Position numbers and translations under genes: made by a program. DNA of 64,000 nt from Schmidtea nova (lineage: Eukaryota): positions 93,868,001-93,932,000 of the forward strand of contig CM097883.1 of the NCBI GenBank assembly GCA_044892505.1, in the 5' to 3' direction. Position 1 is the stretch's first letter; each line of letters opens with the position of its first letter. A model generated the notes under the pieces. It saw only the letters and a list, made by a program, of their open reading frames with translations. It searched no databases and was not told where the DNA came from. Shown here piece by piece: positions 31,844 through 62,720 of this stretch.

Positions 31844-31871
31844 TAAATGTTTAGATTTGATTAGTAAGATT

Positions 31872-40460: not shown

Positions 40461-40517
40461 AACACAGGTCCAGTATTAACCACGACAATAGAGATTAACG
40501 GAAGAGAAATCGAAGCA

Positions 40518-43500
40518 ATGATCGACACTGGAGCAAATATTTCCGCCATCGATATCAAATGGATACCACAAGAGCAAAGACGGGAAATAGAAAGGACAAA
40601 CGTCCATGTAATTGCATGTAGCAAAGAAGTTGTAGAAGTAGCAGGAAGATGGTGGGTAAAAATACGCCATTTAAATACAGAAATCGATACGTACGTAGCA
40701 GTCATACCAGCATTAAGCGTACCTTGCATTATCGGAACAGATTTGATGCCAGCGTTATTTAAAGAAATCGTAATCGATCTCGGAACAATGAGATTAAAAG
40801 ATCGCACCGGACAAATATGCGCAATAGAAGCCAAAGTGACAAGCTCAAAGCAAATGATAATACCCGCAAGAAAGGAAAAAATATGTTACGTAAAAATAGA
40901 TCCGACAATCCAAGGCGATATGATTTTCGAACCAAGTAAGAGATTCGAGAAAAGAAAAGCGTTGCCAATGGCAAGAGGACTAGTCAACATAAACGATAAT
41001 GGGGAAATCCCAATAAACGTAGTAAATTTCGACGAGGAGGATAAAATAATCTACGAAAACGAAAGACTAGGTAAACTAACCCCAATGATGGATATCGAAA
41101 TACCAATAGAAGGGGCAGAGAAAGATAAAGAACCAACCTGGAATATTGATAGTGAATTATTAAATGAGGACCAAAAGAAGCAGCTAGAAAAACTTCTGAT
41201 AGAGTATAAGGACATATTTGCAGCATCCGATTTAGATCTAGGAACATGTGATGTCACACTACATACGATACCATTAACAGATGACACACCAATTGCATTA
41301 AGGCCGTACAAATTAGCAGAAGCACAGAAAGCAGTAGCAGAAGCAGAAGTGAAGAAAATGTTGGATGCGGAAGTAATCGAACCAAGTTGCTCACCCTGGC
41401 AATTTCCAGTGGTAATGGTAAAGAAGAAAGACGGAACACAGAGATTCTGCATAGATTATCGAAGGTTGAATACGGTAACAAAACGAGACACTTACCCATT
41501 ACCGGACATCAACGAAATGCTACTAACACTACAAGGAGCAGCATATTTTACGTCGTTAGATCTAAAAAGCGGATATTGGCAAATAAAAATGAAGGAAGAA
41601 GATAAAGAGAAAACTGCCTTTACCATCGGTAGAGACCTATATCAATTTCGAAAGATGCCATTTGGATTAACGAACGCACCAGCATCATTTCAGAGATGCA
41701 TGAATTTCGTCACCCATGGAATAAAGCAGTGTATGGTCTACATAGACGACTTATTAATTTATTCTAGCACGTTTGAACAACACATACAAGATATTCGAGA
41801 TGTATTCGTTAGACTTAGACAATGGAAGTTAAAACTCAAGCCATCCAAGTGTGATTGGGCGAAAGAAAAGGTTACATTTTTAGGACATATAGTGTCAGCA
41901 AAAGGAAAAGAACCGGATCCTAGAAATATCGACAAAGTAAAAGAATGCCCAGTACCAAAAACAATAACCCAAATACAAGAATTTCTCGGACTATGTGGAT
42001 ATTATAGAAAGTTTATAAAAGATTACGCCGGAATAGCAAAACCTATACAAGAGCTGGTAAAGAAAGATGTATCATTCATATGGGGAGACGAACAGCAAAC
42101 AGCTTTCGAGACATTAAGAGATAAACTGATAACCGCACCCATATTGGTACACCCAGACTTCAAGAAGCCATTCCTACTTGCAACGGATGCAAGCGGATAT
42201 GCAGCAGGAGCAGTATTAGGACAATACGATGATGAAGGAAAAGAACGGGTAATCGGATATTATAGCCGGACATTCAAAAAGCATGAGAAAAACTACTCAG
42301 TAACCGAGCGAGAAGCATTAGCGATTATATTAGCGATTAAACATTTTAAATATTTATTATGGGGACACATCATCTGCATAACAACAGATCACCAACCGCT
42401 TGTATGGTTAGGACAGCATAAGGAAACATCCAGTAGATTAATGCGATGGGCAATGCAGTTACAGGAGTACTCACCAGACATAAAATTTAAATCAGGAAGA
42501 GCGAATGCGAATGCAGACTGTATGTCAAGACTGACATTCCCGGAATTAACCGACCCGGATGTACAACGAATTTGCGTATTAATAGCAGAAGATTTGGATT
42601 TTAGTGAATTAAAGAAAGATCAGCAGGAAGACAAAGAATTAGGACAGATCATAGAATTCCTAACATCTCGAAACATGGAAGTATTCAAAGAGAACAAGGA
42701 ATTAAAGGAACATATAGGAAAATATCAACATCGCTACATAATAAATAAAGGATGGTTGTTAATACAAGACGGGGAAAAGAGATTGATGTGCTTACCGGAA
42801 AACAGAAGGAAAGAGATAATGATCCAATACCATGATGGGAAATTAGGAGGGCATATGTCCGAGAAAAAGACAATAAATCGTATGAGACAAAAATATTATT
42901 GGCGAACAATGGAAGAAGATATCAAAGGATGGATTAAAAATTGTCTAACTTGCGCAACCGGAAAGGATAGTGGGAAGAAATGGAAAAACCTACTACAACC
43001 AATGCCGATACCAGCAGAGCCAATGACAACTATAGCAATGGACGTAATAGGGCCATTACCAGAAAGTCTAAACGGAAATATTTATATATTGGTAATAACG
43101 GATTACCTGACAAAATTCCCGGAAGCATTTGCCATGCAAGATCAAAAAGCAAAAACCGTAGCAAAAATTTTGGTAGAAGAAATATGTTGCAGATACGGAA
43201 CTCCAAAACAAATACTCACAGACCAAGGAACTAACTTTATGAGTGAGTTATTAGACGAGGTGACAAACTATTTCAGAATAGCAAAATTGAGTACTTCACC
43301 ATATCACCCACACACGAATGGACAAACAGAGAGATTCAACGGCACATTGATTAGAATGTTATCCAACTATGTCAGCAGACACCAAACTGATTGGGACGAA
43401 TACATAAAATTATGTTTAATGGCATACCGAATGTCGATACATGCAGCAACAAAACTAAGCCCGTTTCAACTTATGTATGGAAGAGAATGCAACATGCCCA

Positions 43501-46478
43501 TAGATTTAGAGTATCAACCACCATTATCGCAATATATGGAAGACGACGACTACGTAACCAAATTCAAAGAAAGAATGCAGGAAATATGGAAAACGGCAGA
43601 ACTCAACATTAAATTTTATCAGGAAAGTTATAAGGATTTACACGACCAGAAGAAAAATGTTAAAGCAAACGACCTAAAACCAGGAGATTGGGTGATAATA
43701 GAAACTCCCGAAATAATACCAGGAACGGTTAAGAAACTCCAAAGACCTGGAAGAGGACCTTATGAAATTATATACAAAAAGGACAATAATGTCAAAGTTA
43801 AGCTAGTAAATCGACCGTTAATACGATCCATATATGTAAACACATGCAGATGTAAGAAAGTGCCTAAAACAATAACTACAACACCAGAAAATCGAATAAT
43901 AACCAGATCACAAACAGCCAGGATAAATATGCTCAGAGCAAACACAACCGAAGACGACAAAGCAGAAACAAGGCATAAGGAAATCAGAAATAAAGAAATC
44001 GTATTGAAAGCAAGAGAGGTAATGGGAAGATGGCATGCCAGAGACGAAGCAAACATATTAAAAGATATACGATGGATAATTAGCGACTACGCACAAGGAC
44101 TACCAACGAAACCAATTATTTCTGAGTTGTTAGGAAAAATCCCTGAAATACTTTTATTAGAGGATGTAGGGGGACAACCCGCCTTACACAATGCGGTAAA
44201 GTGTGGAAACATAGAAAGAGCAACGGAATTCCTAAAAATTGCAAAAGAAACCAATCAACACCTAGGTTTCGGGAATCGCGAACAAGAAACCCCACTAATG
44301 ATAGCGGCAATTTACCAAGCAAACAAGGAAATGATAGACCTTTTGATAAAGGCCCGTTTCAACTGGACAGAACGAGATAGGGAAGATAAAACAGTCTTAA
44401 ATCACGTAATATGGAGTTCACACCAACTAATGCTGAAACATATAATCGCAAACGCCACATGGGAAATAGACGAATTAATAAAAGGAGACATTATCAAAGA
44501 AGCAATCAAAATTGGTAAGTGCAACACGATCCGTAAGTTAATCAAATGGAAACGACCAGAAGATGATACATGGGTTTTAGACATAAACGAAGTATACAGC
44601 GAAGGACAAAACGCACTGTTAAGATACCTTGTGAAATTTACTTGCGATCAAAAGACATTACTAACCTTATTAGACAGAGGAAACATAAACATCACAAAGA
44701 ATGAAGAAGAACACAAATTCGATAAAGAAAAAGGGGCCTTATTCAACAAGATTAGGAAATGGTGTGCGAAACCACTTGATAAACTAATAACATACAAAGA
44801 CATAAACAATTTTAACGAGAAATACCAGACGATAGTAAATGAGTATGATGAACTAGTAAAAATCCTAAACCACCCCGAAAAATGCAAACAGGTTTTGGAG
44901 AAAAAAGAAAGAGAAAGTAACAAGAAACTCACACCACTCTTCAAAGCAGAAGCACCATACCAAGCTAGACTAGATGCGATACAAGAAAAAGCAAAAGAAT
45001 TGTTACCGGAATTCGAGAATAGTAAACATGCACTGGAAATACTCGGCGCATTAGTTGAAAAAGTACACGCATACGCAAAAGGAACATACAATAGTAACGA
45101 CATAACGACTATAAAAAAGGAGATGCCAGTAACATTTTTACTACCAAAGGACGGAATAATGCCCATACATAGAGCTTTACGAAATGGCAAAGATAGAAAA
45201 GTAATGGAAATCGCAAGAGTAATGTTAAATTGCGGAAGCAACATGAATATGATAGACGAGAAAGGAGATACACTTATGGTATTTGCAGCAAGGGCTAAAA
45301 CGAAAACAAAGGTGTTGGAAGAACTATACAAAGCAGGTGCAGGACTTACAGGAAAGACAGATAAAGATAATTCAATTTTGGATGTAGCATTACTAACACA
45401 TAATTGGGAAATGGTCAACTTCATTAAAACAATCGCAAATCAGGAAGAAATAGATTACCTAACTGATACGGTTAAGAAACCCAGTGTACTAACAATGATG
45501 CATAATGTCGAACTAACAGAAGCAATACTTACGTGGATAAATCCGAATACTAACGAACCAGCATTCAGGATTAATGAGTTTACAGAACATAACCAAAACT
45601 GGTGTATAAGAAGTGCCTTAATAACGTATAAATGGCCAGAGATATTGAAGATGTTTATGGAAAGAAAGGATATAAGAATCACAAACAATCCGAAAGAAGA
45701 GAAATACACAGGCAAATGGAAAGAATTAATGAAGACATACATCAACAACTGGATCAAGGCCAAAAAGGAAATTGTGGAATATAAATCCACCAACAAAGTA
45801 ATACCGGAGCACTTAGAAACACAAGAATTTGAGGCAAGTAATCTAACGACATTAGCATATGCAAAATTGATAGAAGAAATCAATGTCGAGGACGACATTT
45901 TCAACGAGCCAGGGGGAGATGACAATACAGATAGTGACGACGGTAACAACTCAGAAAATTCAAACGATCACGAACCACCCGATAAAGAGGAAAACGAGAA
46001 AAAAGACAAGAAACGAGTCAAAGAAGAAAAGAAAAATGAAGACGAAAAACAAAGAAATGAAGAGGGAGAACAAAGAGACCAAGGAATTAAAAATGACACC
46101 CAAAGAACAGGTTATAAATCAACCATAAAACCATTCTTCAAACCAGAATTACTATTATTAACAGTGATTTTAACGTTAATTAACCCAAGTCAAGGAATGA
46201 CATGTGAAGAAAGGGCAATAATACAAATAAAAAACGCAAAAGGAATCGAACGAGTATGTTGGTCGAAAAAGGACAAAATCACGGAACAAAATAGCCCGAT
46301 GGATTGCAGAATCTCAAAACACGAGCAAGAGATCATAGAGATCAATGACTTAGATCTAAATACCTGGTACAAAATATGCACCGTTAGAAAACAAAAGCAT
46401 CCAAGATCACACAACACAATCGCATGTGCAAAATACCAAACACCTAAAGCAGCCATGACAATACAACAGTCACCCTAA
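40518..46478 (+). CDS. pol: Pol polyprotein (PR-RT-RNase H-IN) extended by ankyrin repeats and a signal peptide/FN3-like module; frame open from 40461
   Basis: IDTGANISAI protease; CIDYRRLN, MPFGLTNAP and YIDD (41739-41750) RT; TDASG...TDHQPL RNase H; HHCC, TDQGTNF, TERFN and GPY integrase; GQPALHNAV, ETPLMIAA, GIMPIHRAL and GDTLMVFAA ankyrin motifs. Confidence 0.95.
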   Translation: MIDTGANISAIDIKWIPQEQRREIERTNVHVIACSKEVVEVAGRWWVKIRHLNTEIDTYVAVIPALSVPCIIGTDLMPALFKEIVIDLGTMRLKDRTGQICAIEAKVTSSKQMIIPARKEKICYVKIDPTIQGDMIFEPSKRFEKRKALPMARGLVNINDNGEIPINVVNFDEEDKIIYENERLGKLTPMMDIEIPIEGAEKDKEPTWNIDSELLNEDQKKQLEKLLIEYKDIFAASDLDLGTCDVTLHTIPLTDDTPIALRPYKLAEAQKAVAEAEVKKMLDAEVIEPSCSPWQFPVVMVKKKDGTQRFCIDYRRLNTVTKRDTYPLPDINEMLLTLQGAAYFTSLDLKSGYWQIKMKEEDKEKTAFTIGRDLYQFRKMPFGLTNAPASFQRCMNFVTHGIKQCMVYIDDLLIYSSTFEQHIQDIRDVFVRLRQWKLKLKPSKCDWAKEKVTFLGHIVSAKGKEPDPRNIDKVKECPVPKTITQIQEFLGLCGYYRKFIKDYAGIAKPIQELVKKDVSFIWGDEQQTAFETLRDKLITAPILVHPDFKKPFLLATDASGYAAGAVLGQYDDEGKERVIGYYSRTFKKHEKNYSVTEREALAIILAIKHFKYLLWGHIICITTDHQPLVWLGQHKETSSRLMRWAMQLQEYSPDIKFKSGRANANADCMSRLTFPELTDPDVQRICVLIAEDLDFSELKKDQQEDKELGQIIEFLTSRNMEVFKENKELKEHIGKYQHRYIINKGWLLIQDGEKRLMCLPENRRKEIMIQYHDGKLGGHMSEKKTINRMRQKYYWRTMEEDIKGWIKNCLTCATGKDSGKKWKNLLQPMPIPAEPMTTIAMDVIGPLPESLNGNIYILVITDYLTKFPEAFAMQDQKAKTVAKILVEEICCRYGTPKQILTDQGTNFMSELLDEVTNYFRIAKLSTSPYHPHTNGQTERFNGTLIRMLSNYVSRHQTDWDEYIKLCLMAYRMSIHAATKLSPFQLMYGRECNMPIDLEYQPPLSQYMEDDDYVTKFKERMQEIWKTAELNIKFYQESYKDLHDQKKNVKANDLKPGDWVIIETPEIIPGTVKKLQRPGRGPYEIIYKKDNNVKVKLVNRPLIRSIYVNTCRCKKVPKTITTTPENRIITRSQTARINMLRANTTEDDKAETRHKEIRNKEIVLKAREVMGRWHARDEANILKDIRWIISDYAQGLPTKPIISELLGKIPEILLLEDVGGQPALHNAVKCGNIERATEFLKIAKETNQHLGFGNREQETPLMIAAIYQANKEMIDLLIKARFNWTERDREDKTVLNHVIWSSHQLMLKHIIANATWEIDELIKGDIIKEAIKIGKCNTIRKLIKWKRPEDDTWVLDINEVYSEGQNALLRYLVKFTCDQKTLLTLLDRGNINITKNEEEHKFDKEKGALFNKIRKWCAKPLDKLITYKDINNFNEKYQTIVNEYDELVKILNHPEKCKQVLEKKERESNKKLTPLFKAEAPYQARLDAIQEKAKELLPEFENSKHALEILGALVEKVHAYAKGTYNSNDITTIKKEMPVTFLLPKDGIMPIHRALRNGKDRKVMEIARVMLNCGSNMNMIDEKGDTLMVFAARAKTKTKVLEELYKAGAGLTGKTDKDNSILDVALLTHNWEMVNFIKTIANQEEIDYLTDTVKKPSVLTMMHNVELTEAILTWINPNTNEPAFRINEFTEHNQNWCIRSALITYKWPEILKMFMERKDIRITNNPKEEKYTGKWKELMKTYINNWIKAKKEIVEYKSTNKVIPEHLETQEFEASNLTTLAYAKLIEEINVEDDIFNEPGGDDNTDSDDGNNSENSNDHEPPDKEENEKKDKKRVKEEKKNEDEKQRNEEGEQRDQGIKNDTQRTGYKSTIKPFFKPELLLLTVILTLINPSQGMTCEERAIIQIKNAKGIERVCWSKKDKITEQNSPMDCRISKHEQEIIEINDLDLNTWYKICTVRKQKHPRSHNTIACAKYQTPKAAMTIQQSP

Positions 46479-46628
46479 GGAGATTACATCATCGGAAAAT
46501 GTGGAAGAACAGAGACACAGGAAACAGAAAACAAAAAATCCCAGGCAGCAGATAAGCAAACAACACCAACCCTACGAATTACAATAGAGAGGCCCGAAAC
46601 AAGAGTTGCCACAAACGAAACCGAAAGA

Positions 46629-49607
46629 GTGTCTTACCAAATGGAAGTGTTATGTTTAGCACTCATACTAATAATAATAAAACGACTAGAGGAAGGGACG
46701 GAAATCGAAACTATGACAATAACAGAAGTTGAAGATACACAGAATACTAACATAAAATGTTGGGCGAGGAATAACGAGGAAATCGGCGTAAATGAAATAA
46801 GGAAAAGTCGAAAACCAACAACAAGTAAAGTAATTAAAGTATCCGAAGTAAGAGCAGACAAAATGTACAAACTATGCCTACTAGAAAAAGAGAGAAACAA
46901 GAAAGGTACCACAAAAATTAAAACATTCCAAACTGGAGAAGTAATAAAGTTCAGAAGGAGAACGAGGAGGAGAAATAAACAAATCAAGCAGAAAGTAAAC
47001 ATAACATTAGAAATAAAAGAGATAGAACCAAACGTGAAAGGAGTATGCTGGAGGAAGTACGAAAAGAAAACAAATAAAAGAATGACACCACAATGCCGAA
47101 CAAGCACAGGAGCAACGACGATTCAAATAAAAGGTTTAGAAAGTAAACAAACCTACGAAATATGTTTGGTAAAGAAAAATGATCAGATAACGATAAACGA
47201 CCTAGAATGCGGAATACATACAACTTCATCCGGAACAAGAACCAAAACGTTAACACGGAAAAATAAAAGGAAACAACGAAACAAAGGAAAACCGAAGTAC
47301 ACCACTACCTTTAAAAACAATAAACAACCAATAAGCCAGGAAGTTACGACAAAACCCGAGAGAAAGACATCAGCAACTCTAACATTATGGAAAATAGAGA
47401 ATAAAACATTGGAAATATGTTGGATAATAGTCCAGAAACATATAAGAAGACAATCAAGAGAGTGCAGAAAAACAAATAAAGAAATCAGGATCGAAAAACT
47501 ACAATTTAATAGCGAGTATGAAGTATGTACAATAGAAAAAATGGACGCACTAGGAAACCAACAAGAAAGATGCGAAACCTACTATACACCAGCAAACGCG
47601 ACATCAAAAGGAGTAGCAAGGAAACTCGAATTCAAGGAACTAAGCCAAACGAATGAACAAATGGACGCAGAAAAAATAATAACCGATCCTCAAGCAAAAT
47701 GGACACCTGAAGAAGTTATCAAAGAAGTCAAAAGAAAGCAAGAGGAACGGGAACAATTAAGGAGAAAACTAAAAGGACAATATGGAATAATGTTCAACCA
47801 AAGCGAATCTATACCAACAGACGAGAATAAGGAAATTAAAGAACTAATTGGCTTAGGAATTTTAACAGCGACCATACCAGTAATAATCGCGTTATCAGCT
47901 ATATGGATACGCAAGATAAATCCCAGAAAATCAACAACCAAATGGCCAAATATAGACAGTACAAGCCACGGAGTTGAAATACTAGAAGAAAAAGCAAGAG
48001 AAGAACCAAAACCGACCAGGAATAAGAAAGAAGCAAAAATCGCAAAACTAGGAATGAACAACAAAGACAAGGAAATAAAAGAGATTAAAGGAGAAGAGAA
48101 AAAATATGAAAGGCGAACCAGAAGCCTACCGCAGAGTTCAAAATGGTTGGGTCTAACAATAATATTGACATTAATCAATAGGGAAGAAGCAACAAACCTA
48201 CAAGCAGGGATAAAAATAGTAAATGTCCAGGAGGTCGAGAAAATATGCTGGAATAGAGAGGATGAACCAATTGGGAAAGATAACCCACTAAAATGCATAA
48301 TCAGAAAATCCGACCAGGATATAGTACGAATAGAAGGGATGGATAGAGGAATCATGCATCGAATATGCATAATAGGAAAGGAAAGGAAGTCGGGGCTACC
48401 TAAGACAGTCGTATGCCAAAAATACGAAACGCCTAGACTTGAATGGTATAGAGTAAAACCAACAAAGAAAGAAATCAAAAACACAATAGATCAACCAGCA
48501 ACTCAGATAAGAAACACAACGGATAAACCAGGAGAAGGGGAGAGAAGCACCAATAACACGAGAGAAAGAATATCACCCCAACAAGAGTGCGTATGCATAG
48601 CATTAATAATAGCAATGTCCAAACGTTTTGACAGAGGAATAATAATAGAACAAATGGCCATAACAATAAGAAAAACAAGCAGCAACAAACTATGCTGGGG
48701 AACATACAACGAACCAAGGAAGGAATACCAAGTTCAGACAAGCGACGAATCACGAACAAACAAGGAAATCGAAATACAAGAAATACAAATGAACGAAGAA
48801 GGAAGTATATGTATATGGGAGAAAGGAACCCAAGAGGATCAACCCGGAATAGAGCATTGCAAGACATTCCAAAAAGGAGAGACACTGAACTTCGACGAAG
48901 AAGGGTTAACCAAGACAGAAAGAACTCTGACATTAACAGGACTCGATCAGACAGTTAAAGGAATATGTTGGACAAAGTACAACCCAGAAGTGGAAGAAGA
49001 CAACCTAACCCACTGTAAAGAAATAAAGAATAAAGAAAAAGTCGAATTAAAGAAAATCGAAGTAAATAGGACATACGCGATATGTACCTTCACCAGAAAA
49101 GGTTCAGAAAAACCAGAATGCGGATTATATCAGATCTCAGAGAAACTACAACAACAGATCGAACCAGGAAACGTGGAAAACCGAACAAAAGAAAATAACG
49201 TCAAACAACTACTAAACCGCCATTGGTCTACACAAGAAGTAATGAACCAAGTCAAGAGTCAAGTGCAGAAGGAGAAGAGGCCAGAGGCTCAAACGCAAAA
49301 TGAGATAAAAGTAAATCGGAATAAAAACAAAGAAACAAACATGGGAAAAGCAGTAATAGGATTGATCAGTATGGGAATATTAATAGCGTATGGAATACTG
49401 ACTACCAGCATGATAGTATACTGGAAATACAGGAAGAGAAACAAAGCGACAGCCATACAATGGCCAGATATCAAAATTATGAAACAAGGAATAGAAATAC
49501 CAGAAGAAATACAGAAAGAATTTCAAAGAAGAACGAAAGGTAAAGAATTCTGGAAACAAATAGAAGATGAAGAAAGATACGACAGAAGGACAATAATGAA
49601 TGTATAG
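46629..49607 (+). CDS. Multi-pass membrane protein with repeated Cys-containing FN3-like modules (first ATG 46641; in frame with pol)
   Basis: Six modules with CW and I..L.....Y.IC-like motifs, signal/TM segments, and internal duplication of a cassette. Confidence 0.8.
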   Translation: MSYQMEVLCLALILIIIKRLEEGTEIETMTITEVEDTQNTNIKCWARNNEEIGVNEIRKSRKPTTSKVIKVSEVRADKMYKLCLLEKERNKKGTTKIKTFQTGEVIKFRRRTRRRNKQIKQKVNITLEIKEIEPNVKGVCWRKYEKKTNKRMTPQCRTSTGATTIQIKGLESKQTYEICLVKKNDQITINDLECGIHTTSSGTRTKTLTRKNKRKQRNKGKPKYTTTFKNNKQPISQEVTTKPERKTSATLTLWKIENKTLEICWIIVQKHIRRQSRECRKTNKEIRIEKLQFNSEYEVCTIEKMDALGNQQERCETYYTPANATSKGVARKLEFKELSQTNEQMDAEKIITDPQAKWTPEEVIKEVKRKQEEREQLRRKLKGQYGIMFNQSESIPTDENKEIKELIGLGILTATIPVIIALSAIWIRKINPRKSTTKWPNIDSTSHGVEILEEKAREEPKPTRNKKEAKIAKLGMNNKDKEIKEIKGEEKKYERRTRSLPQSSKWLGLTIILTLINREEATNLQAGIKIVNVQEVEKICWNREDEPIGKDNPLKCIIRKSDQDIVRIEGMDRGIMHRICIIGKERKSGLPKTVVCQKYETPRLEWYRVKPTKKEIKNTIDQPATQIRNTTDKPGEGERSTNNTRERISPQQECVCIALIIAMSKRFDRGIIIEQMAITIRKTSSNKLCWGTYNEPRKEYQVQTSDESRTNKEIEIQEIQMNEEGSICIWEKGTQEDQPGIEHCKTFQKGETLNFDEEGLTKTERTLTLTGLDQTVKGICWTKYNPEVEEDNLTHCKEIKNKEKVELKKIEVNRTYAICTFTRKGSEKPECGLYQISEKLQQQIEPGNVENRTKENNVKQLLNRHWSTQEVMNQVKSQVQKEKRPEAQTQNEIKVNRNKNKETNMGKAVIGLISMGILIAYGILTTSMIVYWKYRKRNKATAIQWPDIKIMKQGIEIPEEIQKEFQRRTKGKEFWKQIEDEERYDRRTIMNV

Positions 49608-49732
49608 GGGCGGATTATGACTGTAAATAATAGTGTAAATAACAAAGCATTACCGTAATAGTATGGGTATCGATATTATAAAAATTGTAAAAAGATAGAA
49701 AAGCAAAGTAAATGATGTATATAATTTAGAAA

Positions 49733-50089
49733 ATGACCGAACAGGACGAAACAACTGAAATAACTATGGCTATGAGATGGAAAGCGCAATGCGATTTATT
49801 AGTACGAACAGTCAACTCATTACAGAACCAATTAGCAGAAAAACAAATGTTACTATCAGAAAGCTATAACAATTGTTTCGAACAATTACACAGAATAGAG
49901 GAACAACAAAGAGCGATAACTGAACTCACCAGAGAAAATCAAACGATAAGCAACACCAATCAAAGACAAGCAATAGAAATAAACCATTTAACACGAGGAG
50001 AAAGAGAAGGATCCGAAGAAGGATGGATGAGTTGGGTAATAAATAGATTAAACAACGAAGCGGAACCAGATTCAACGAATGAGCCATAG
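49733..50089 (+). CDS. Small coiled-coil protein, unknown function
   Basis: ATG ORF preceded by TAGAAA; heptad pattern. Confidence 0.65.
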   Translation: MTEQDETTEITMAMRWKAQCDLLVRTVNSLQNQLAEKQMLLSESYNNCFEQLHRIEEQQRAITELTRENQTISNTNQRQAIEINHLTRGEREGSEEGWMSWVINRLNNEAEPDSTNEP

Positions 50090-50181
50090 ATAAATAAAGC
50101 GGAAAACTGTAAATATGTAAAAATAAAAACAAGAAAAACCAAAAATAAATGACAGGTCGAATGTATATATTATTGTAGAAA

Positions 50182-51558
50182 ATGGACCGAGATGAACGAG
50201 TAATCGAAATCTTGAGATTAGAAAACAGAAAATGGAGCAAGAGGCTCACATGCGGAAAATGTAATAATTTACTACGAGAACCCAGACAAACGATATGTGG
50301 ATGTAGAATATGTACAAAATGTATACAAGAATTAGTTGCAACAGGAATAACAACATGCCCAGAATGTAAGGAAGGAAGAATAGTGTTGAACGAAACCAGA
50401 ACGGACAAAGCAACCCAGAGAGAAATTATGAGCACCATAACGAAGTGCGTAAATACACCTTGTACATGGCAAGGACAAATAAGTAATCTAGGAAATCATA
50501 TGGAAAAGTGCGAGGAGAAAAGAGCCGAATGCGAGAAGTGCCAACAGACAATAATTCTAAAGAAGAGAGAACAACACAAGGACGAATGTAAAGAAGAAGA
50601 AATCGCATGCGAGTATTGTGAAACTCGAGAAACGAGGAGAAAAATCGAAGAAGAACACTTGAATATAACAGAGGAGAAAGTATGCGGACAATATGTAAGC
50701 AAATGTCCAAACAATTGTGGAATAACAGAAGAAATAAAGTTACATGAACATTGGAAAGTATGTACCGAAAGGCCAAGAGAATGCCCATATAACAAGCAGG
50801 GATGCAAGGAGAAGCGAACGCGGCAAACAATGAAACAGCATCTAGAAGAAGCAGCATTAATGCATGTGGAGATGACAAACGAAGCGGCAAAAGAAACGGA
50901 ACAGACAATCCAGAAACTGGAAAAGGAAGTAGAATCACATAAAATAATGATGAGTTTACTACTAGAAACAAGAGAGCAGTTTGAACTAACTCGCGAAAGA
51001 ATGGAAGAAAAAATAATAGCCATAGAAGAATTGGGAAAAGGAATGAAAATACAATATAATCAATTAATACGAGAAATTGACGAAAGAAGGGACTTACCAA
51101 TCGCACCTTACCTATGGAAAATAACAGATTTTAGAGACAAACTAGCAGAAGCCAGAAATATGACGAAAACAGCAGTAATAAGCCCACCATTTTATTTATG
51201 GAAAAATGGGGTTAAAATAAGATTAAAGGTATACCCAAATGGAGACGGAAGAGGACAAGGAACACACGTGTCAATATTTTTCTCGTTATGTAAAGGAGAA
51301 TACGATGACCTAATAGAATGGCCCTTAAAAGTAGGAGTCATTATAAGAATCAAAAGTATAGGAAAACCAGTGGAAAAGTTCTTTGAAACAGACAAACATA
51401 CGAGTACAAGTGAAAAACCAACAACAGAATGCGGACTAGCAGCAGGAGAACCAATGTTTATAAGGAAAGAAAACCTATGGGAGCGACTATATGCAGACAC
51501 ACTATACATAGAGATGGAGAGGCATGAGAAAACGGATAGAAAAGGATGGTTGGCGTAA
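50182..51558 (+). CDS. Intronless TRAF-family protein (RING - TRAF zinc fingers - coiled coil - MATH)
   Basis: LTCGKCNNLLREPRQTICGCRICTKC...CPEC RING; multiple CX2-3C/H zinc fingers; MATH YLWKITDF...SPPFY...KVYPNGDGRGQGTHVSIFFSLCKGEYDDLIEWP. Confidence 0.93.
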   Translation: MDRDERVIEILRLENRKWSKRLTCGKCNNLLREPRQTICGCRICTKCIQELVATGITTCPECKEGRIVLNETRTDKATQREIMSTITKCVNTPCTWQGQISNLGNHMEKCEEKRAECEKCQQTIILKKREQHKDECKEEEIACEYCETRETRRKIEEEHLNITEEKVCGQYVSKCPNNCGITEEIKLHEHWKVCTERPRECPYNKQGCKEKRTRQTMKQHLEEAALMHVEMTNEAAKETEQTIQKLEKEVESHKIMMSLLLETREQFELTRERMEEKIIAIEELGKGMKIQYNQLIREIDERRDLPIAPYLWKITDFRDKLAEARNMTKTAVISPPFYLWKNGVKIRLKVYPNGDGRGQGTHVSIFFSLCKGEYDDLIEWPLKVGVIIRIKSIGKPVEKFFETDKHTSTSEKPTTECGLAAGEPMFIRKENLWERLYADTLYIEMERHEKTDRKGWLA

Positions 51559-51671
51559 TGAAGGAAGTAACCATGTAAATAAACTGTATAGAACAATATG
51601 AATTAACAAATAATCAAAAACAATAAAAATAAAAAAATGATTAAATATTCTTTTTATCTGTAATTATAGAA

Positions 51672-52568
51672 ATGGGAAATATAGAAGTAACCTTACAAGA
51701 AGTAACCGTACATCAAGACGAAATGATCAGAAATCACATGGAGCGGATTGGGATATGGATTCATGCCTATTATCGAAAACAGGAGGAATTGGAAAGACAA
51801 ACCCAAGCACTAAGAGAAGCCGAGAAAACGAATCAAAGAAGTCGAGAAAAAATAGAAGAAGTCTACAAACTGCTAAGACAACAAAACGAATACTACAAAG
51901 AGATGATGAAAGAGCGACGAGAGGATAGGGATAGACAACAGATAAAAACAGACCATAAGATTCAGTCAATCACAGAACAAGCAAGATATTGGAAAAAAGA
52001 GGCAAAAGACTCTTACAAGGAAGCAAGGGAGATAATAGAACAAACAGCGTACAGCGATGATTGGAAACTGTTTAAAGAGATCGATGAATTAAAAGAAGAA
52101 TTAGGGAAAAAGATCAGTCAGGAAGCGTCAAATAAAGTATGGAGTAAGAAAAGACAACAATTCATTAGGGAACAAGCCAAGAAAATCAAAGAATTAACTT
52201 ATCAAGTACAAAGAATGGGAGAAGATTTAGCCAATCAAGAACAATTAAAAGGTATGCTGACCGGAATGTGGAATCACAAGGAAGAAAACATGAAAAGAGA
52301 CATAAATGGATATCAAGGAGTGATTACCCAGAAGAAAATAGAATTAAAAAGAACTAAAGAAAGACTGGAAGAAACGAGGCAGAGTTATGAAGAGAACATA
52401 ACCAATTTGACAAAAGAAAACGAAGAACTGAGGAAAAAGCTGACAGAAAAACCAATACCAGCAAAGGAAACAAGTATTACAGCAGCAGTAACGGAAATGA
52501 TGGAGAAAGAAGAGAGAGAGAAAAGATTAATGGAACTAGAAAGACAAATTGAAACCCTAACAGAGTAG
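51672..52568 (+). CDS. Long coiled-coil protein, unknown function
   Basis: 298 aa rich in E/K/Q/R with heptads; preceded by TAGAA-ATG. Confidence 0.7.
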   Translation: MGNIEVTLQEVTVHQDEMIRNHMERIGIWIHAYYRKQEELERQTQALREAEKTNQRSREKIEEVYKLLRQQNEYYKEMMKERREDRDRQQIKTDHKIQSITEQARYWKKEAKDSYKEAREIIEQTAYSDDWKLFKEIDELKEELGKKISQEASNKVWSKKRQQFIREQAKKIKELTYQVQRMGEDLANQEQLKGMLTGMWNHKEENMKRDINGYQGVITQKKIELKRTKERLEETRQSYEENITNLTKENEELRKKLTEKPIPAKETSITAAVTEMMEKEEREKRLMELERQIETLTE

Positions 52569-52812
52569 GCAAACTACCTGGAATACTTATTAGATGAAGA
52601 GATCCAGATATCCCACACATACCGAGAGGAAGTGGAAATGTGGAGGAGTACGGTAATATGGATGCCGCTCCCCATAAACCAAGTGGAACCTCAAGACGAA
52701 GGTTTTCACGAACCTAACGAAACCCTCGTGTAAATGAGCGGAAACCAATTGTAAATAGATGATGTAAAATAAAAAGCGTCAAGCTGTATTGACTCCTATG
52801 TAAAGATAGAAA

Positions 52813-53373
52813 ATGAGAAAGCTCGCAATACCAATACTCCTATGGTTAATAACCATCACCCTACAGAGAGAAGATCTACAACTTACCGAAACCCAATTAC
52901 GAGTCCTACCCGACAAAACCTACCAAAAAGTAGACAGCCTAATCGAGGAAGTAATTAAAGAAATCAACGAATTCCGACAGAAATATCCCCACAATCAAGA
53001 TCATCAAATCCAACAAATCTTAGATAACCAACAACTGAAACTAAAAGAAACCCGAAAAACCCTGAAAGAAGGTAGAGAGCCCATAAAAAGCCTAGCCCAA
53101 GCTGAAATAGAATATCAAGAGAAATGGATCATAGCAATCATCATAATCCTTTCAATCAGCGTAACTATCATTGCAATCACAATCCTGATTGCCTCCTACC
53201 GGATAAAAATCCTCAAACAGAAACAAACCATCGTCAATCAAACATCAAGGCGAGACAACCGAACCCAAAGACGTATGAGAAACCATCTAGATCGAATTCA
53301 GACCCACTACGAATTAGCTACAAGCAATGAGAGAACTCAAACCCAACCCAATGCGAGCCGGAGGATCGAATAG
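52813..53373 (+). CDS. Small type I membrane protein (signal peptide, helical ectodomain, TM, basic tail)
   Basis: N-terminal MRKLAIPILLWLITITL; TM WIIAIIIILSISVTIIAITILIA; preceded by TAGAAA-ATG. Confidence 0.7.
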   Translation: MRKLAIPILLWLITITLQREDLQLTETQLRVLPDKTYQKVDSLIEEVIKEINEFRQKYPHNQDHQIQQILDNQQLKLKETRKTLKEGREPIKSLAQAEIEYQEKWIIAIIIILSISVTIIAITILIASYRIKILKQKQTIVNQTSRRDNRTQRRMRNHLDRIQTHYELATSNERTQTQPNASRRIE

Positions 53374-53561
53374 ACTTTGTGAACATTTCTGATGAACCTT
53401 TGACTATCCTATGACAATAATCTGATAATATTCAACTATCCTATGACAAATCTTATGATGTATATAAATTCTATCACCTTAAGTGATTTTCCTTGTGTTT
53501 ATGTGTATATCTGTAAAACTTTTTATGTATGATGTTATAAGTAGATATGTATAATTAATTG

Positions 53562-53591
53562 CGGGACGCAATTTTAGGGGTCCCCGAGTGA
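53562..53591 (+). other. Non-canonical polypurine-tract region
   Basis: CGGGACGCAATTTTAGGGGTCCCCGAGTGA immediately before the 3' LTR. Confidence 0.5.
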
Positions 53592-54881
53592 TGTTGGGCC
53601 CACCAATTGGTCTAAAAAGACAAAAATATTGTACTAATTTAAACAATAAATACAAATAATAACCACAAAAACATTCAAAAAACCTAAATTAAAAATCAAA
53701 ATAAAATAATAAATAATAATTACTAAATTTCCAGCAAAGGAAGAAAATCAAATTGACACGGGAACGAGCAGTATGGGGGTCTGAAATAAGAAAATTACAA
53801 ATAAAATCAAATAAAAGTACAATTAATTGGTTAATTACTTGAAAAAATCGGGACCACCCAGCGACAAATCTGAACCGGAAATTTAAAATGGTTTATATTA
53901 AAATAAAATAACAAAATTACTTTGATGGACGGCCTGATCCTGATTGGTCAATCTGACCAACTGGATCAGTATAAATACCGATCCAAAAATCATACAGATA
54001 ACACCTAAAATCTTAGCTACCGAACTGATCTATAACAGTCAGTTACATCAACTTTGATACGACAAATATTGTGTAAAATTTCGGAAAACGCTACATCTTG
54101 GATTTAAAGAGTAAATTTTGTTGTATTGTATTTGAACTAATTTTATGATATGTTTTACATGATTCCCATTTATTTCATTTCATTTAATATAATTTATTAC
54201 TATTAATTGCTCTATTTTCTTATGCCATTATTTTATGATATGATAAATATACTTCCTCAGTAGCTCACGCTGCGAGGGAGCAAGCCGTAAATGTGGGATT
54301 TCACCGTTCCACAAGATGGTGAGCAGAGTTTTATTGGTATTTTTATTTAATTTTTAACTTTACGGTAGAGTTGTGCAGGGACAAGGACACGGGTAAAATT
54401 AGTAGACAGTGTTTAACATTAATTAATTAACATTCAATCAGACAGGAGAGAATAAACTACAGTACTAATTATCATGTCAACTAAGTCGATTTCGCATATG
54501 CACACGATTTTTTTTGAATCCACATAGCTGATCAAAATAATGTCCGGACACACCGAGACGATTTCGACATTTCAACGATAGTTTCAATTAAGATATAAAT
54601 AACAACATAATCAGATCGACACTACTGATTGAATAAGTAAAACCGTAACCTGATCGCTGTAAATAGCGCAGGTGATAATATGTAAATTTTCAATAAACGT
54701 ATCCCGATCGCTGTATATAGTGACGGTGTTAATTGAATAGCTTAGAAAATTATTTTTTTTGTTCCTCCTTTTCATATTTTTTTTTGTTTTGTTGATCAAC
54801 GAGAGGAACACATTTCATCAGGTCTTACCAAAATTTGGGGATTAGTCACAGTAAATTTTATTAGCATTATTATTCTCTCAG

Positions 54882-55382
54882 ATGAAATCAACGATACTGG
54901 ATGAATTTCTAACAACTCAACGTCATGTGGCACGGGTCGAAAATCCTCTAATCCGGACGCAACGGAAGAAATTGAAGTCGCTTCCACAGGAACTTCTCAG
55001 AACGCTAAATGCGTTAATGTATAAATGGAGACGGGAACTAGGAAAGAAATGTCCGTTTTCGATTTGGGCCGGTGGATTAGATACCATCATATATCGTGGA
55101 GGCCCCGGATGGGAAATTCAGGACAAAAGAGACCGGGAGACGACAGCTCCATTCATCATAGTGGTGACAGACCGCGAAGGAAATCCAACGACAGTGATCC
55201 ATTGGGGATATGTCTCACCGCTCAAGTTGCTTCACTTTGGGTTGATTCCGAACCACTTACCGAAAACGTGCCATGGACGCCCCAAACTAAACTGTTCGAT
55301 GGCTCACATCCGACGAGATCCAGTCAATCACGGGTTGCATATTACCCCCGTTCACGGCCTCAAGCGAAGCGTTTTCCACTAA
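54882..55382 (+). CDS. LTR-ORF1 (3' LTR copy)
   Basis: Translation identical to 29238-29738. Confidence 0.5.
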   Translation: MKSTILDEFLTTQRHVARVENPLIRTQRKKLKSLPQELLRTLNALMYKWRRELGKKCPFSIWAGGLDTIIYRGGPGWEIQDKRDRETTAPFIIVVTDREGNPTTVIHWGYVSPLKLLHFGLIPNHLPKTCHGRPKLNCSMAHIRRDPVNHGLHITPVHGLKRSVFH

Positions 55383-55548
55383 ACATTATATTCACATTTG
55401 TATGAACTAAACTATTTCCATAAATTAAATGGTATTGATCTGTGTTTTGCCTGTTCTTAGTTAAATTTATTTCTATTTATTTAATCATATAATTTTTACA
55501 CTCGACGGATAATATTAATCGTTGGTAACATAATGGCTGCATCATAAA

Positions 55549-56157
55549 ATGGGTTTGTTATTTAGTATGACGGAAACTAGCCAACAGCGAGAATTGGATA
55601 AGGCGTGGAGAATCCGCCGAGCCTTAGAAAAGGAGCTAAATCAGGAAAAAGCATTACGAGCCAAGGCAGAAGCTCAGATTCAGTATTTACGGACCAGCTG
55701 GTTCGCCCCAGCCCGTATGAAGGAGCAGATGAGTCGGACAGAAAGGGCTCAAAAGACAGCTGACGATTATCGCACCGAATGGGAAGCAACAAAAATTGAG
55801 TTGCGCCGATGTCTCCATTCGGTGACGACTTCATTTATCGAGTCCGAATTGAAAGCACAAATCCGACCTATCACCTACCAGAAATGGGTAGGAGAACAGA
55901 AAGTGGCCTGCTCGGTCAGTACGGACACCGATGGGCTCGAGGCAACAACAGTGCAGAGTCGGGTGGAAACCACCACTGTACTAAACCCCGTCGAAAAAAC
56001 GAACAAGCGAAAACGAATCGGCTCCAAGCGCCGTCGCCAAAGAAAGCTGTTTTCTCAACAGTTGCAGACACAAGTAACCCCTATGGCAGAAATGTCGGAA
56101 GCCGAGTGGTTATCCGAGATATTCCCTCCTGAAGGAATTTTCAAAGAATTTCTGTAG
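55549..56157 (+). CDS. LTR-ORF2 (3' LTR copy)
   Basis: Translation identical to 29905-30513. Confidence 0.7.
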   Translation: MGLLFSMTETSQQRELDKAWRIRRALEKELNQEKALRAKAEAQIQYLRTSWFAPARMKEQMSRTERAQKTADDYRTEWEATKIELRRCLHSVTTSFIESELKAQIRPITYQKWVGEQKVACSVSTDTDGLEATTVQSRVETTTVLNPVEKTNKRKRIGSKRRRQRKLFSQQLQTQVTPMAEMSEAEWLSEIFPPEGIFKEFL

Positions 56158-57087
56158 CAGATAGAATCATAATATGATGTCAGATTTTGGAGTTAATTAA
56201 ATCTTTGCTCGTTTTTTTTTGTGTTGTTGATTCCTAGGTATTTCTTTCGATTACATAATTCATATAATTAAATTTAAATTACACGTCACACAAACGAAAG
56301 GAGTAGCGATAAAGGATTTAAATATTATCAAATTTGTAGTTTCGTTTTGCTTATTTTTTTTTGTTTTTATGGTAAATACATAGCCTCACACGCACGAAAT
56401 AGAACAATAATTGCGTAAGTCCTTCTACGGCCGCGTGAACCCGTAAACATAAAGGGGGAGTAGTCCTAGCAATAGTGCTCACCTGCCCCTCATTGTTTAA
56501 CCACCCTGCGCATCACCAACTTGGTTATCAAGGGAAATAATCAAGGGCGCTCGAGTGTAGCTTACGATTATTTATGCATGATCATGGATGGGAGATCCCT
56601 GGCAATCATTAGAATGTTTACTACACCGTCCATGAACCCAGCAATTTACTAAATAATAATAATTTAAATGATAATATTTAAAAAAAATTACAATTATTTC
56701 CAATTGTTCTTTCATCTTGATTCGCCATGTTGTTGTTGGAAATATTTGTTCCTATAAAACAAAATAATAAAAAAAAAATTATAAATTTACTCATAATTCG
56801 AGATCCGTTAAAGATACCATTTTGAAAATTGTTGTACATATTTTTTTTTAATATTAGAAAATTTTAAGATTTGAAAATTTTTGTAAAAGTGAATAAAAAA
56901 TGAGAGTATAGACTATATAAAGGAGGTTTTATTAACCGTCCAATCAGAGACGAGATAACTACATGTTTATATATGTGTGCATCGTTTTCACACCGAGTAT
57001 GTATGTTAAAAATCACTCACCAAGTATGTCTTTGTAAAGTCTGCCTGATGCATGTTCGATGCAATATAATAAAGCCACTAAGTGACT

Positions 57088-57843: not shown

Positions 57844-60800
57844 TCATGCGATGTTTCGTAATACGTTCTTCCCATTTTGCATTTTTACTTCAAAACTTCT
57901 ATCATGTGTTTGATTAATAATTTCACCCGGACCTTCGTATCTATCGTCATCTTTCTTTCGAATATCCTTTTTTATTAGTACTATATCTCCTATATTAAAC
58001 CTTCTGATATTTGTATGGTTTTCTTTTAATCTTTTTGTTGGATCTACACCGCTCCATTCTAATATTATCTTTTTACCGGAAACCATCTCAGTCGGTGTTT
58101 TACTAATTGTTTTCTGATACGTCGAATTTAACATGAATTCCACCTCTGGGAGTACTTCTACCCAACTTTTATGTAATTTATCTTTTAAAGTTATGTGAAG
58201 TGCATCACGTATCGTCCTGAACTGACGTTCAATCTGTCCATTTGCAGCATGATGATATGGACTTGAAAAATTCATCCTTGATTTATATCTTTGACACAAT
58301 TCTTTTATCATGGAACTTTCAAAAGATTTGCCTCTGTCTGTATTGATTATTCTAGGTGCTCCATACTTTAATATCCATTGATTTAATATTGATGCTGTTG
58401 TTTATTCACCTTGAGAATTAGTGGCATGTAATGAAACATATTTGCTATATTGATCAATTATTGCTAATATATATTTCTTGTTGTATATATTGTTCCCGAA
58501 AGGTCCACAATAGTCTATAAAGATTGACTCAAATAATTAAACTTTCTCTAGGGTTTTTATATCTTCCTTAGTTCTCTCAGTAACAACTTTTCTCCTTTGA
58601 CAATTTTCATAGCTTTGAATTACCTCTTTTATTATATTCGACATATATTTCATTGCAAAGTTGTTTTCTATGTATTTAATTACTTTATTATATCCCGCAT
58701 GACATAATCTTTTGTGATAATTCAAAAATAAATTCTTCTCTTTTGTTTTCTGGCATCCATATTTTATCATTATCAGTTTTTACAATTCCATTTTCTGTGT
58801 AAAATTTGAAATTCCCGATTTTACTTATTTTACCATTTAGTATATCTGTTATCTCGATTGACTGGTTTTACCATACGTTTTCACTGACCTCGACCATCAT
58901 CGAAAGTATTCTCGTCTTAAGTTTCCCTATTTTTGGATCACCATGTATCATTTGGCATTGTATACATGTTGTAGATTCACTTCTTGACATGGCATCCGCA
59001 TTTGTGTGAATATCGCCCTTTCTGTACTGTAAATCGATATCCAGACTGCTTAAATAATTTATCCACGTTTGAAATTGTGGGGTTAATGGTTTCTTGGTTT
59101 TCATCATGAGCGTTATTGTTTTGTGATCTGTTCTTAATGTTTATCATATAAATAATGCTTAAAATGATTCGTAAAATAATAAATGGCAAGCAATTCTTTC
59201 CTCGTTATACAATATCCAATTTCATGTTTACTCATTGCATGTGAACCATGCGCTACTACTTTTTCTTTACCATTTTCTTGCTTTTGGGAGAGGACAGCTA
59301 CAATTATATCAAAACTTGCATCTGTATCCAATATAAATGTCTTTTGGAAATCTGGATATGCCAGTACGGCCGTTGTACTCAGTTTATCTTTTAAATTTTT
59401 AAAACTTTCTTCACAATCTTCTGTCCATATTAGTTTCTTTTGATTGCTTCCACAAAGACCTTCTAAGACTTTTGCATGTTTGGTATAATCGTGAATGAAT
59501 TTCCTGTAATAATTGGCTAGTCCCAAGAAACTTCTTAATTTTTTAAGCATTTCGGTCTATCAAATTCTTTTATTGCATTAATTTTATTAGGATCCGTTTG
59601 AATGCCTTCTTCATTTATTATATGCCCCACAAATTTAATTTCTTTTCTTTTAAAATAGCACTTTTCTGGGCTGATTTTTAATCCCGCTTTTTTAATCTTC
59701 AGAAATACTTTTTCTATCGATCTATAATGCTCATCTAATGTTTTTGAGAAAATCAGAATATCATCTAAGTATACTACCGCTTCTATCCAATTCAATTCTC
59801 CAAGTACTCTATTCATGAGTTTCTGAAATGTACCTGGTGCTGCTGCAATTCCGAAAGGCATTCTATTAAAACAATACTGCTTATTTTTAGTTGAAAATGC
59901 CGTTTTAATTTTAGACTCTTCTTCTAGTTCAACTTGACAATATGCATTTCCCAGATCGATTGTTGAAAAATACTTTGATCCATTCAAAACATCTAGTAAT
60001 TCATTCATGTTTGGCATTGGGAATACCGGTCTTTCTGCTACGTTATTTAGCGCTCTAAATTCTAAGCATATTCTAATATCATCTTTCCCTTTTTTCTTTA
60101 CACATACTAATGGTGTATTCCATGGTGATTCACATTCCTTGATAATGCCAAACCTTTCCATTTCTTTTATTTGTTCATCGATTTTATCCAGTAGATGAGC
60201 CGGTTGTCTTCTTGGATTGAGTGCTATAGGTTTGCTAGCAGTAATTATTTCGTGTTTCATTAAGTCAGTTTTCCCCACATCCCATTTGTGTTTCATAAAA
60301 ACATTGTCGTATTTGTTTATTAGGTTATTAATTGCCATATCTTCAACTTTCCTTTCAATAAATCCTTCTTCTATGAAATTCACCGATAATTTCGATAACT
60401 TTGTCTCACGAATCAGACTATCATTTATACAATCATCGATATTCAACCGGATACAAACTTCATCCAGAAAGTTCATTCCACCAATTAGTTGAGGTCTAAT
60501 TTCATCTGCTATATAAAATTGTATATCTTTACTTTCTTTTATTCCTTGAATTTTAATGTTTATCATAATAGTTCCAACAATATTAAGGGGACTGTCATTT
60601 GCACATTTTACTTTCATATTACTCTTTTTGACATTATTCATATAACATTTCTCAATCATATCGCGGTCTATGACGCTGATTTTTGCTCCTGTGTCAAGCA
60701 AACATCTTAAACATCTACCATTCATAGTAACATTAACGCTCGGTCTGCCTCCCATAGCATCATATCTGATAATTGAATCCCTGTCATTCATCAAACACAT

Positions 60801-61028
60801 ACTTGAATCAATTGTTAGTAATCTTTCTTCACTACTACTTCCACTTGCATCATAGTGGCTGTTAATTTCATTTATTAAACTTATACATTCGCTATTTTGA
60901 AAGTTATATTCAGATATACTATTTCTATTTAATTCACAAATATTATTTATATTAAAAAAATTATTATTTAAATATTTACTATTAAAATCACAAGAATCAA
61001 ACATACAATCACAATCATTCGCATACAT
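57844..61028 (-). pseudogene. pol: Degraded Ty3/gypsy pol (PR-RT-RH-IN)
   Basis: LLDTGAKISV, MPFGIAAAPGTFQ, YLDDIL, LDTDASF, YRKGDIHTNADAMSR, YHHAANGQIER and YEGP; broken by frameshifts and stops. Confidence 0.9.
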
Positions 61029-62133: not shown

Positions 62134-62720
62134 ATGAAAAGAAGGTCGTACAGTACAAAAGAAAAGCTAGAAACACTCGAAATTTTAAGAAAAAACAACA
62201 ACAACATAGGCAAAACAGCGAGGGACTGTGGAATGACAAAAAAATGGTGCGGGATTGGAAAATGAAGGAGAATAAAATATGCGAAGTAAAATAAAATCAA
62301 CAACCTTTCGCATAGGATCCGGTAGAAAGGCGTTTTTTCCTGAGTTAGAAGAGAAGCTAAAGGTTTGGTTGGCCTTTGAGCGAAAAACAAATAAACGGCT
62401 AATTTCTTACAACACCCTGCGTGAGCAAGCAAAAAAAATTGCAGCTTCTTTATCATTAAATGATTTCATAGGAAGTAATTGCTGGATTGAGAACTTAATG
62501 AATAGAAATGAATTATCGGTCAGAAAAATCACTAGCGTTGGACAAGAAGACAATCGCTCAATTGATGAAACTAGGTCGGTTATCAATAACTATTTTGAAG
62601 TTTTAAAGTTAAAAGCAACAAATATTTCATCTATGAATATATATATAATATGGATGAAACACCGATGTATATTGACATGATGAACTCAAGAACAATATTA
62701 TTCAAAGGTGAGAAAAATAC
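62134..62720 (+). pseudogene. pogo/Tigger-like transposase 5' fragment
   Basis: MKRRSYSTKEKL Psq-type HTH; CENP-B-type HTH FPELEEKLKVW...LREQAKKIA...SNCWIENLMNR; first catalytic motif MDETPMY; then truncated. Confidence 0.8.

Follow-up and report, generated by a model that had tools for sequence, protein, structure and literature searches.

Within a 64,000-nucleotide stretch of the Schmidtea nova genome (contig CM097883.1, positions 93,868,001 to 93,932,000; hereafter the window), a giant Burro-like Gypsy element carries four accessory open reading frames (ORFs) behind its polyprotein. Judged from the sequence, the spacers ahead of these ORFs hold two separable signals: a TAG close to each start codon and a TGTAHATA pair close to the upstream stop codon. 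The initial annotation had treated a TAGAAA(A)TG start motif and TGTAAA repeats as one common expression signal, most simply splice acceptors giving nested mRNAs. The TAG fits the sequence expected of an acceptor, whereas the TGTAAA repeats do not appear to belong to the same signal. The element, its polyprotein and the downstream region are organized as follows, with distances given in nucleotides (nt) past the upstream stop (+) or before the ATG (-).

27947 to 56643, + strand: whole Burro-like Gypsy long terminal repeat (LTR) element, 28.7 kb, from its LTR pair, flanks and domains
32535 to 49607, + strand: polyprotein in a single frame, from its domains
49608 to 49732, + strand: spacer 1, 125 nt, with TGTAAATA at +15 and +27, TGTATATA at -17 and TAG at 49727
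49733 to 50089, + strand: accessory ORF A1, 118 amino acids, soluble, with a coding-like codon score and coiled-coil-like by eye
50090 to 50181, + strand: spacer 2, 92 nt, with TGTAAATA at +19, TGTA at +27, TGTATATA at -20 and TAG at 50176
50182 to 51558, + strand: accessory TRAF, 458 amino acids, with RING, zf-TRAF and MATH domains (PF22486, E 4e-21; PF02176)
51559 to 51671, + strand: spacer 3, 113 nt, with TGTAAATA at +16, TGTA at +27, TGTA at -13, 78 AG-free nt and TAG at 51667
51672 to 52733, + strand: accessory ORF A3, 298 amino acids to the stop at 52566-8, after which the coding-like frame runs on for 54 codons to 52733
52734 to 52812, + strand: spacer 4, 79 nt, with TGTAAATA at +17, TGTA at +30, TGTA at -14 and TAG at 52807
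52813 to 53373, + strand: accessory ORF A4, 186 amino acids, a membrane protein by hydropathy (hydrophobic N-terminus, one strong transmembrane segment)

Inspection of the four start codons reveals the shared motif at every position where it had been reported. TAGAAAATG lies at 49727, 50176 and 52807 and has no other copy on either strand of the window, while TAGAAATG lies at 51667 and totals two copies on the + strand and two on the - strand. Only four of the 482 ATGs in 32535-53373 directly follow TAGAA(A), and these are exactly the four ORF starts. Shuffling the last 40 nt of each spacer never placed a TAG 2-3 nt before all four ATGs (0 of 200,000 trials); any shared low-A trinucleotide arose in 0.1% of spacer-end shuffles, and a shared word of at least five letters in 1 of 40,000. 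The gaps after the polyprotein's three internal stops, which provide an internal negative control, hold neither the TAG nor the TGTA motif.

Upstream of the TAG, each spacer contains three to four decoy ATGs (15 in total, the nearest at -18, -21, -35 and -15). None of the 15 opens into its ORF, so simple scanning fails, and in all four cases the ORF start is the first ATG past the TAG. Given these decoys, the 5' boundary of each message is expected within the last 15-35 nt of the spacer. Scored by the share of T in the 25 nt that precede them, the four AGs fall in the top 7.6, 3.3, 0.05 and 7.6% of the 1,928 AGs compared, and three of the TAG sites have no other AG within 20 nt, one of them none within 78 nt. 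The most natural reading of the TAG 2-3 nt before each ATG is a weak 3' splice acceptor.

The second signal behaves differently. The TGTAAA sites listed in the initial annotation are present, three of them one base from the positions given (50108, 50116 and 51574 for 50107, 50117 and 51573), and the motif, as far as sequence can tell, is really TGTAHATA, matching the Pumilio response element consensus UGUAHAUA (PMC4995099, PMC5758885). TGTA occurs 16 times against 5.3 expected and TGTAWA 13 times against 2.1 (each 0 of 20,000 dinucleotide shuffles), and the excess of TGTA and TGTAAA holds after best-word correction (0 of 1,000). Of the 15 TGTA sites in the spacers, seven continue as TGTAHATA (binomial p 7e-6; Fisher p 9e-7 versus the window's other TGTA sites), against 0.31 expected in the spacers, and the 8-mer occurs 0 times in 20,265 nt of element coding sequence. 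Position 5 of the motif is variable, and positions 6 and 8 are A in 13 and 14 of the 15 sites, respectively.

Measured from the upstream stop, the first 8-mer lies at +15, +19, +16 and +17 (spacer 4 from 52733) and the second TGTA at +27, +27, +27 and +30. The first 8-mer thus spreads over 4 nt from the upstream stop versus 48 nt from the ATG, a 4-nt range with P 0.0004, or P 0.005 without spacer 4. The spacers had been described as short and AT-rich; spacer 4 as originally listed, from the A3 stop at 52566-8, is 244 nt long and only 59% AT, and its 79-nt form, starting at 52734, counts the coding-like frame up to 52733 as part of the third ORF. Across the window, this post-stop module follows 4 of 355 stop-to-stop frames, exactly the four spacers, and it is absent at +15-19 after the last ORF, A4. 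Eight TGTAHATA sites lie between the polyprotein stop and the 3' LTR, one of them after A4, and TGTA clusters are confined to the + strand. Another TGTA precedes each ATG by 13-20 nt, within the presumed acceptor tract. Pumilio is required in planarian neoblasts (PMC3552358).

The post-stop module also occurs outside the window. A profile scan of genome contigs yielded 77 Gypsy-like loci (134 matches), with 47 pol ends having at least 150 nt downstream. Two of these 47 carry the module where 0.002 are expected, namely L002 (+16/+24) and L007 (+16/+27), and all four module-bearing frames among the 4,693 of the 77 loci belong to these two.

5113 to 5145 of L002 and 6202 to 6236 of L007: TGTAHATA pair past the pol stop, in a distant Gypsy lineage

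In both loci the pair sits in a plain 3' untranslated region (UTR), about 300-400 nt upstream of a purine tract and LTR start, and no ORF separates the pol stop from the LTR. A pair past a pol stop with no downstream ORF implies that the TGTA motif belongs to the upstream gene and is detached from the acceptor. Together with the fixed distance to the upstream stop and the Pumilio-type 8-mer, this speaks against joining TGTAAA to the TAG signal. L002, a 6.8-kb unit in tandem, has an additional ORF of 275 amino acids (5951-6778) behind an acceptor-like TTTTCTAACAG. The 134 matches fall in contigs titled as bacterial or archaeal genomes, and eukaryotic contamination of the bins is probable.

A further acceptor-like site precedes gag.

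32445 to 32473, + strand: candidate gag acceptor TTTGTATTTTAG, a T-rich TAG

Thirteen ATGs in 31844-32447 lead up to this T-rich TAG, after which none occurs over 652 nt (32474-33125) until 33126. Base shuffles of this run contain 8.8 ATGs on average and 0 of 20,000 reach zero; codon shuffles give P 0.003. The ATG-free run suggests either a scanned leader or an N-terminally extended Gag. In the same interval, a coding-like frame stays open over 197 codons and runs on into Gag. Candidate donors are present at 28675 (GTGAG), 30772 (GTAAGT) and 31864. At the level of motif and position, the gag site shows what looks like an independent repeat of the acceptor logic of the accessory-ORF spacers.

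With moderate confidence, we favor a two-part spacer cassette in which nested, 3'-coterminal spliced mRNAs are combined with a PUF-type pair. Transcription from the 5' LTR would yield one RNA, whose unspliced form stays the genome. The 3' part of each spacer would act as a deliberately weak acceptor, its TAG 2-3 nt before an A-rich start context. Retroelements need weak acceptors to retain unspliced RNA, as is established for retroviruses. Splicing at one acceptor would remove all upstream sequence, decoy ATGs included, such that low-efficiency splicing to any of five acceptors would generate a separate nested mRNA for gag and for each accessory ORF, with a common end in the 3' LTR. Tentatively, and with a slight preference, we place the 5' exon at a leader donor (cis); a host spliced leader (SL) joined in trans is a rather less likely source. 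An AUG-ended leader would be in frame at three of the four sites (3-nt versus 2-nt spacing), and with a chance of 0.11 for this fit, cis and trans are indistinguishable here. A PUF/Pumilio-type protein would bind the UGUA(H)AUA pair 15-30 nt past the upstream stop and, acting through the upstream cistron's 3' UTR, may tune that cistron's translation or stability. The first ORF of each mRNA would then be closely trailed by a PUF-type pair, and longer mRNAs would carry more sites.

Burro-type elements carry apoptosis and ubiquitin genes, and the cassette is a candidate route to several downstream genes from one LTR; if real, it would explain how giant elements express captured genes. Junctions are predicted to the base, after 49729, 50178, 51669, 52809 and 32473, and the stop-anchored Pumilio-type module may be common across Gypsy lineages.

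Several observations weigh against this two-part cassette. AAA ahead of ATG is a common start context, so only the TAG carries weight. The T enrichment is modest and in part a consequence of the spacers being non-coding, and the tracts are short; site 4 has a second AG 4 nt upstream. Decoy ATGs, T-richer tracts, the gag site and the leader donors agree with the nested-mRNA proposal of the initial annotation, but UUNYAG, the acceptor reported for parasitic flatworms (PMC12582326) and derived from their SL acceptors, is matched by only two of the four sites. The post-stop module was defined with position ranges set on the window's four spacers themselves, and where spacer 4 starts was decided after the data were seen. 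L002 and L007, sister loci of a single assembly that are only distantly related to the window element, count as one independent event; the module is lacking at 45 of the 47 pol ends, and 0 of the 77 Gypsy-like loci carry the window element's env or accessory ORFs. Lastly, this copy, with five in-frame stops, may be inactive.

The remaining features of the element are as follows.

27947 to 31000, + strand: 5' LTR, 3,054 nt, with a TATA-like box at 28326 and T-rich intron-like stretches
29014 to 29110, + strand: LTR cluster of TGTAAATA, TGTAAAT, AATAAA (29048) and TGTATATA; 3' LTR copy from 54658
31340 to 31843, + strand: upstream accessory ORF with a C-terminal C3HC4 RING (PF13920, E 1e-11)
53374 to 53591, + strand: last 3' non-coding stretch, T 39%, with five TGTA including one TGTATATA and without the +15-19 module
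53592 to 56643, + strand: 3' LTR, 99.9% identical to the 5' LTR

A 4-bp target-site duplication (ATTT) flanks the element at 27947-56643, and its LTRs (3,054 nt for the 5' copy, 3,052 nt for the 3' copy; 99.9% identity) differ at three positions. The 5' LTR presumably supplies the promoter and the donor. The cluster at 29014-29110, which folds at z -2.64, is a possible LTR 3'-end signal. ORFs of 166, 126 and 202 amino acids with T-rich acceptor-like sites lie inside the LTRs (29238-30513; 54882-56157), and the two of the three that were scanned gave no convincing Pfam match. Six nt past the 5' LTR, a primer-binding-site-like stretch (31007-31024) resembles what we take to be a tRNA-Pro site. 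The RING of the upstream accessory ORF is presumably IAP-like; the TAG motif is absent ahead of this ORF, with no TAG within 31001-31339. The polyprotein reads Gag/CCHC, a Monjiviricetes-type fusion protein, protease, reverse transcriptase, RNase H and integrase (PR-RT-RH-IN), ankyrins, and Fn3-like plus hydrophobic repeats. Its env domain (PF24664; E 7e-19 and 4e-43) lies between gag and pol in the same frame, which three in-frame stops break in this copy (39003-5, 40458-60 and 46476-8). Across the element there are five in-frame stops (32532-4, 39003-5, 40458-60, 46476-8 and 52566-8) and zero frameshifts, with nearly identical LTRs; the stops may be either inherited defects or programmed read-through. 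At the polyprotein end (46140-49607; E 4e-13), the Fn3-like modules are internally repeated and accompanied by hydrophobic segments. An Rfam scan of 27000-57000 gave 0 matches. The GC content of the flanks, 20-37%, fits a planarian host but is not diagnostic. The flanks contain mobile-element fragments, all on the - strand, at 24548-26119, 62702-63331, 15205-16008 and 59535-61028; the fragment types are protein-primed DNA polymerase B (Polinton-like, two), a hAT dimerisation domain and Gypsy-type PR-RT.

A1 had no informative Pfam match, A3 had no homologue among 2,360 candidates, and the accessory TRAF had 11 matches, all distant TRAF-family proteins at 23-28% identity. An exact look-up of ten element proteins matched 0 of 10, and a single-protein scan of genome contigs gave no match, nor did a blastn search of the spacer region against phage sequences. 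The env region returned 596 matches at E <=0.001 and 18 at E <=1e-30. Four relatives (P0016, P0018, P0021, P0030) hold env to RT in one protein, and several relatives are unbroken through env. A quick RT tree of 73 rows, which left out 10 of the 77 loci and two proteins owing to short matches, groups the window element with env-PR-RT-IN relatives (Shimodaira-Hasegawa-like approximate likelihood ratio test, SH-aLRT, 95 and 98).

Other explanations of the spacers were weighed against the two-part cassette. Operon-type processing would place a poly(A) site in each spacer (UGUA as CFIm sites, then AAUAAA) together with an SL acceptor and so release monocistronic mRNAs. It draws on AATAAA in spacers 2-4, on a hexamer-to-TGTA distance of 17-20 nt in spacers 2, 3 (ATTAAA) and 4 and in the LTR cluster, where the same ingredients surround AATAAA, on the frame fit of an AUG-ended leader, and on flatworm operon gaps near 100 nt (PMC8629364, PMC12582326). 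Yet AATAAA is not enriched (7 versus 4.5, p 0.15), none of the five Schmidtea hexamers occurs in spacer 1, and four internal poly(A) sites would cut the genomic RNA. The spacers are also rich in A (T 22-29%), unlike the U-rich cleavage sites of planarians, and the Schmidtea 3P-seq study (PMC5068929) found neither UGUA ahead of the signal nor CFIm59/68. The lack of enrichment, the A-rich context and the empty spacer 1 weaken the CFIm/poly(A) reading, and we consider operon-type processing improbable. In a host-operon-like variant, SL trans-splicing at serial TAG-AAA-ATG sites would instead give a nidovirus-like nested set with a host leader, and the stop-anchored Pumilio pair (+16/+27), which a distant Gypsy lineage also has, would be a general retroelement device linking termination to the fate of the mRNA in Pumilio-rich stem cells, either through repression that scales with how many sites each nested 3' UTR retains or through protection from decay; this we regard as unlikely. 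Within the LTR, ATG-GT at 28672-6 with AGTTTTATTGG 8 nt further on suggests an SL-RNA-like unit, but this reading was not accepted because the spacing is too short; AGTTTTATTGG resembles the schistosome Sm site given in PMC12582326. Mononegavirus-type gene-end and gene-start signals, as might accompany the origin of env, were likewise rejected by inference: the element is an LTR unit transcribed by Pol II that encodes no RNA polymerase, and the motif has no U-tract counterpart.

A compact internal promoter in each spacer, built from a forkhead-like GTAAATA plus GGAA, would account for an excess of RYAAAYA (7 versus 2.7, p 0.018) and for GCGGA or AGGAA ahead of the first site in all four spacers. 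The sites keep their distance to the upstream stop, however, and not to the ATG; the TGTATATA sites keep the PUF pattern but break the forkhead pattern; the motif clusters on the + strand only; the decoy ATGs would confine promoter start sites to the last 15-35 nt; and the TAG is left unexplained. Internal promoters outside the LTR are used by Oikopleura Tor elements (PMC5240408), but for the window element we judge them quite improbable. Control could also act at translation, on one polycistronic RNA with reinitiation or internal entry in unstructured A-rich spacers, where the TAG would be the stop of an upstream ORF (uORF) or a guard against N-terminal extension. In spacers 1 and 2 the TAG indeed terminates in-frame uORFs 4-9 codons long, uORFs end at -9 and -10 in spacers 3 and 4, and RNA structure in the spacers does not exceed that of shuffles (z -0.85 to +1.12). 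In spacer 3, however, the TAG is retained although it neither shares the frame of the ORF nor ends a uORF; TGGGA, the calicivirus reinitiation motif, is absent from the 120 nt before all four starts, and the ATG-free gag leader starts at an acceptor-like site, all of which leaves translational control very improbable. Finally, the spacers could be a functionless relic of one duplicated gene border or of LTR ends, as many Gypsy LTRs start with TGTA. Their common motif order would fit such a history, and TGTA starts the apparent LTR past the purine tract in L001, L012 and L059. Between the motifs, however, the spacers align poorly (mean column identity 59%, with AT near 75%), the four accessory proteins are not similar to one another, the window element's own LTR starts with TGTT and bears no similarity to the spacers, and the pair in L002 and L007 lies well upstream of the purine tract and LTR start. 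A relic is, in our view, the most doubtful of these explanations.

Compared with known systems, the element matches the description of the planarian Burro/GYPSM1 giant Gypsy elements; both this element type and spliced accessory mRNAs of LTR elements are already known (PMC5408684, PMC10309623). According to the Burro section of PMC6431247, the shared traits are a giant single frame, Gag-CCHC, a mononegavirus-like env between gag and pol, PR-RT-RH-IN, ankyrins, MATH/TRAF, RING and accessory ORFs. In size the window element (internal region 22.6 kb, total 28.7 kb) appears to fall in the same class, slightly below the Burro type elements, whose internal region reaches 25 kb and whose total exceeds 30 kb. 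The TRAF differs in place: in the window it forms an ORF of its own, full-length and behind the polyprotein, in S. mediterranea it lies inside and in D. tigrina upstream (PMC6431247). The window's Fn3-like repeats are not among the Burro domains of that review section, which also does not cover how accessory ORFs are expressed. BIR, BCL2-like, ubiquitin-like and dUTPase-like modules gave no Pfam or PDB sequence match here, the review having used HHpred. BH2-like and ubiquitin-like stretches were seen in the element proteins by eye only. Burro1 is expressed and PIWI-controlled in planarian cells (PMC8532177) and protects planarian stem cells according to a second-hand citation in PMC13465017; Burro is mentioned once in PMC11410931. 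The literature covered on Burro and on LTR elements with SL trans-splicing does not describe the present signals, and the primary Burro papers, outside that coverage, could already show transcript structure.

The closest likeness for the post-stop pair is found in Pumilio response elements, such as the paired ones of the hunchback 3' UTR (PMC4995099): these too are exact UGUAHAUA 8-mers that lie in single-stranded non-coding RNA past a stop and are often paired. In the window, by contrast, the candidate binding pair sits at a fixed 15-30 nt from the stop in each of four cistrons. Flatworm operons resolved by SL trans-splicing share same-strand genes about 100 nt apart and an AG just before the start (PMC12582326, PMC8629364); flatworm leaders end in AUG, and acceptors are common to cis- and trans-splicing (PMC12582326). 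The window case differs from these operons in that it lies inside a retroelement, internal poly(A) signals are unsupported and UUNYAG is matched at two of four sites. Multiple acceptors are used by HIV and foamy viruses.

For rotifer ORF3 (PMC5408684) and the C. elegans Cer1 CERV (PMC10309623), an acceptor shortly before the ATG yields a subgenomic mRNA from the LTR transcript. In comparison with such spliced LTR-element mRNAs, the window element has four serial, near-identical acceptor/start junctions, predicted and up to about 22 kb from the leader, and each candidate junction is paired with a stop-anchored UGUA pair.

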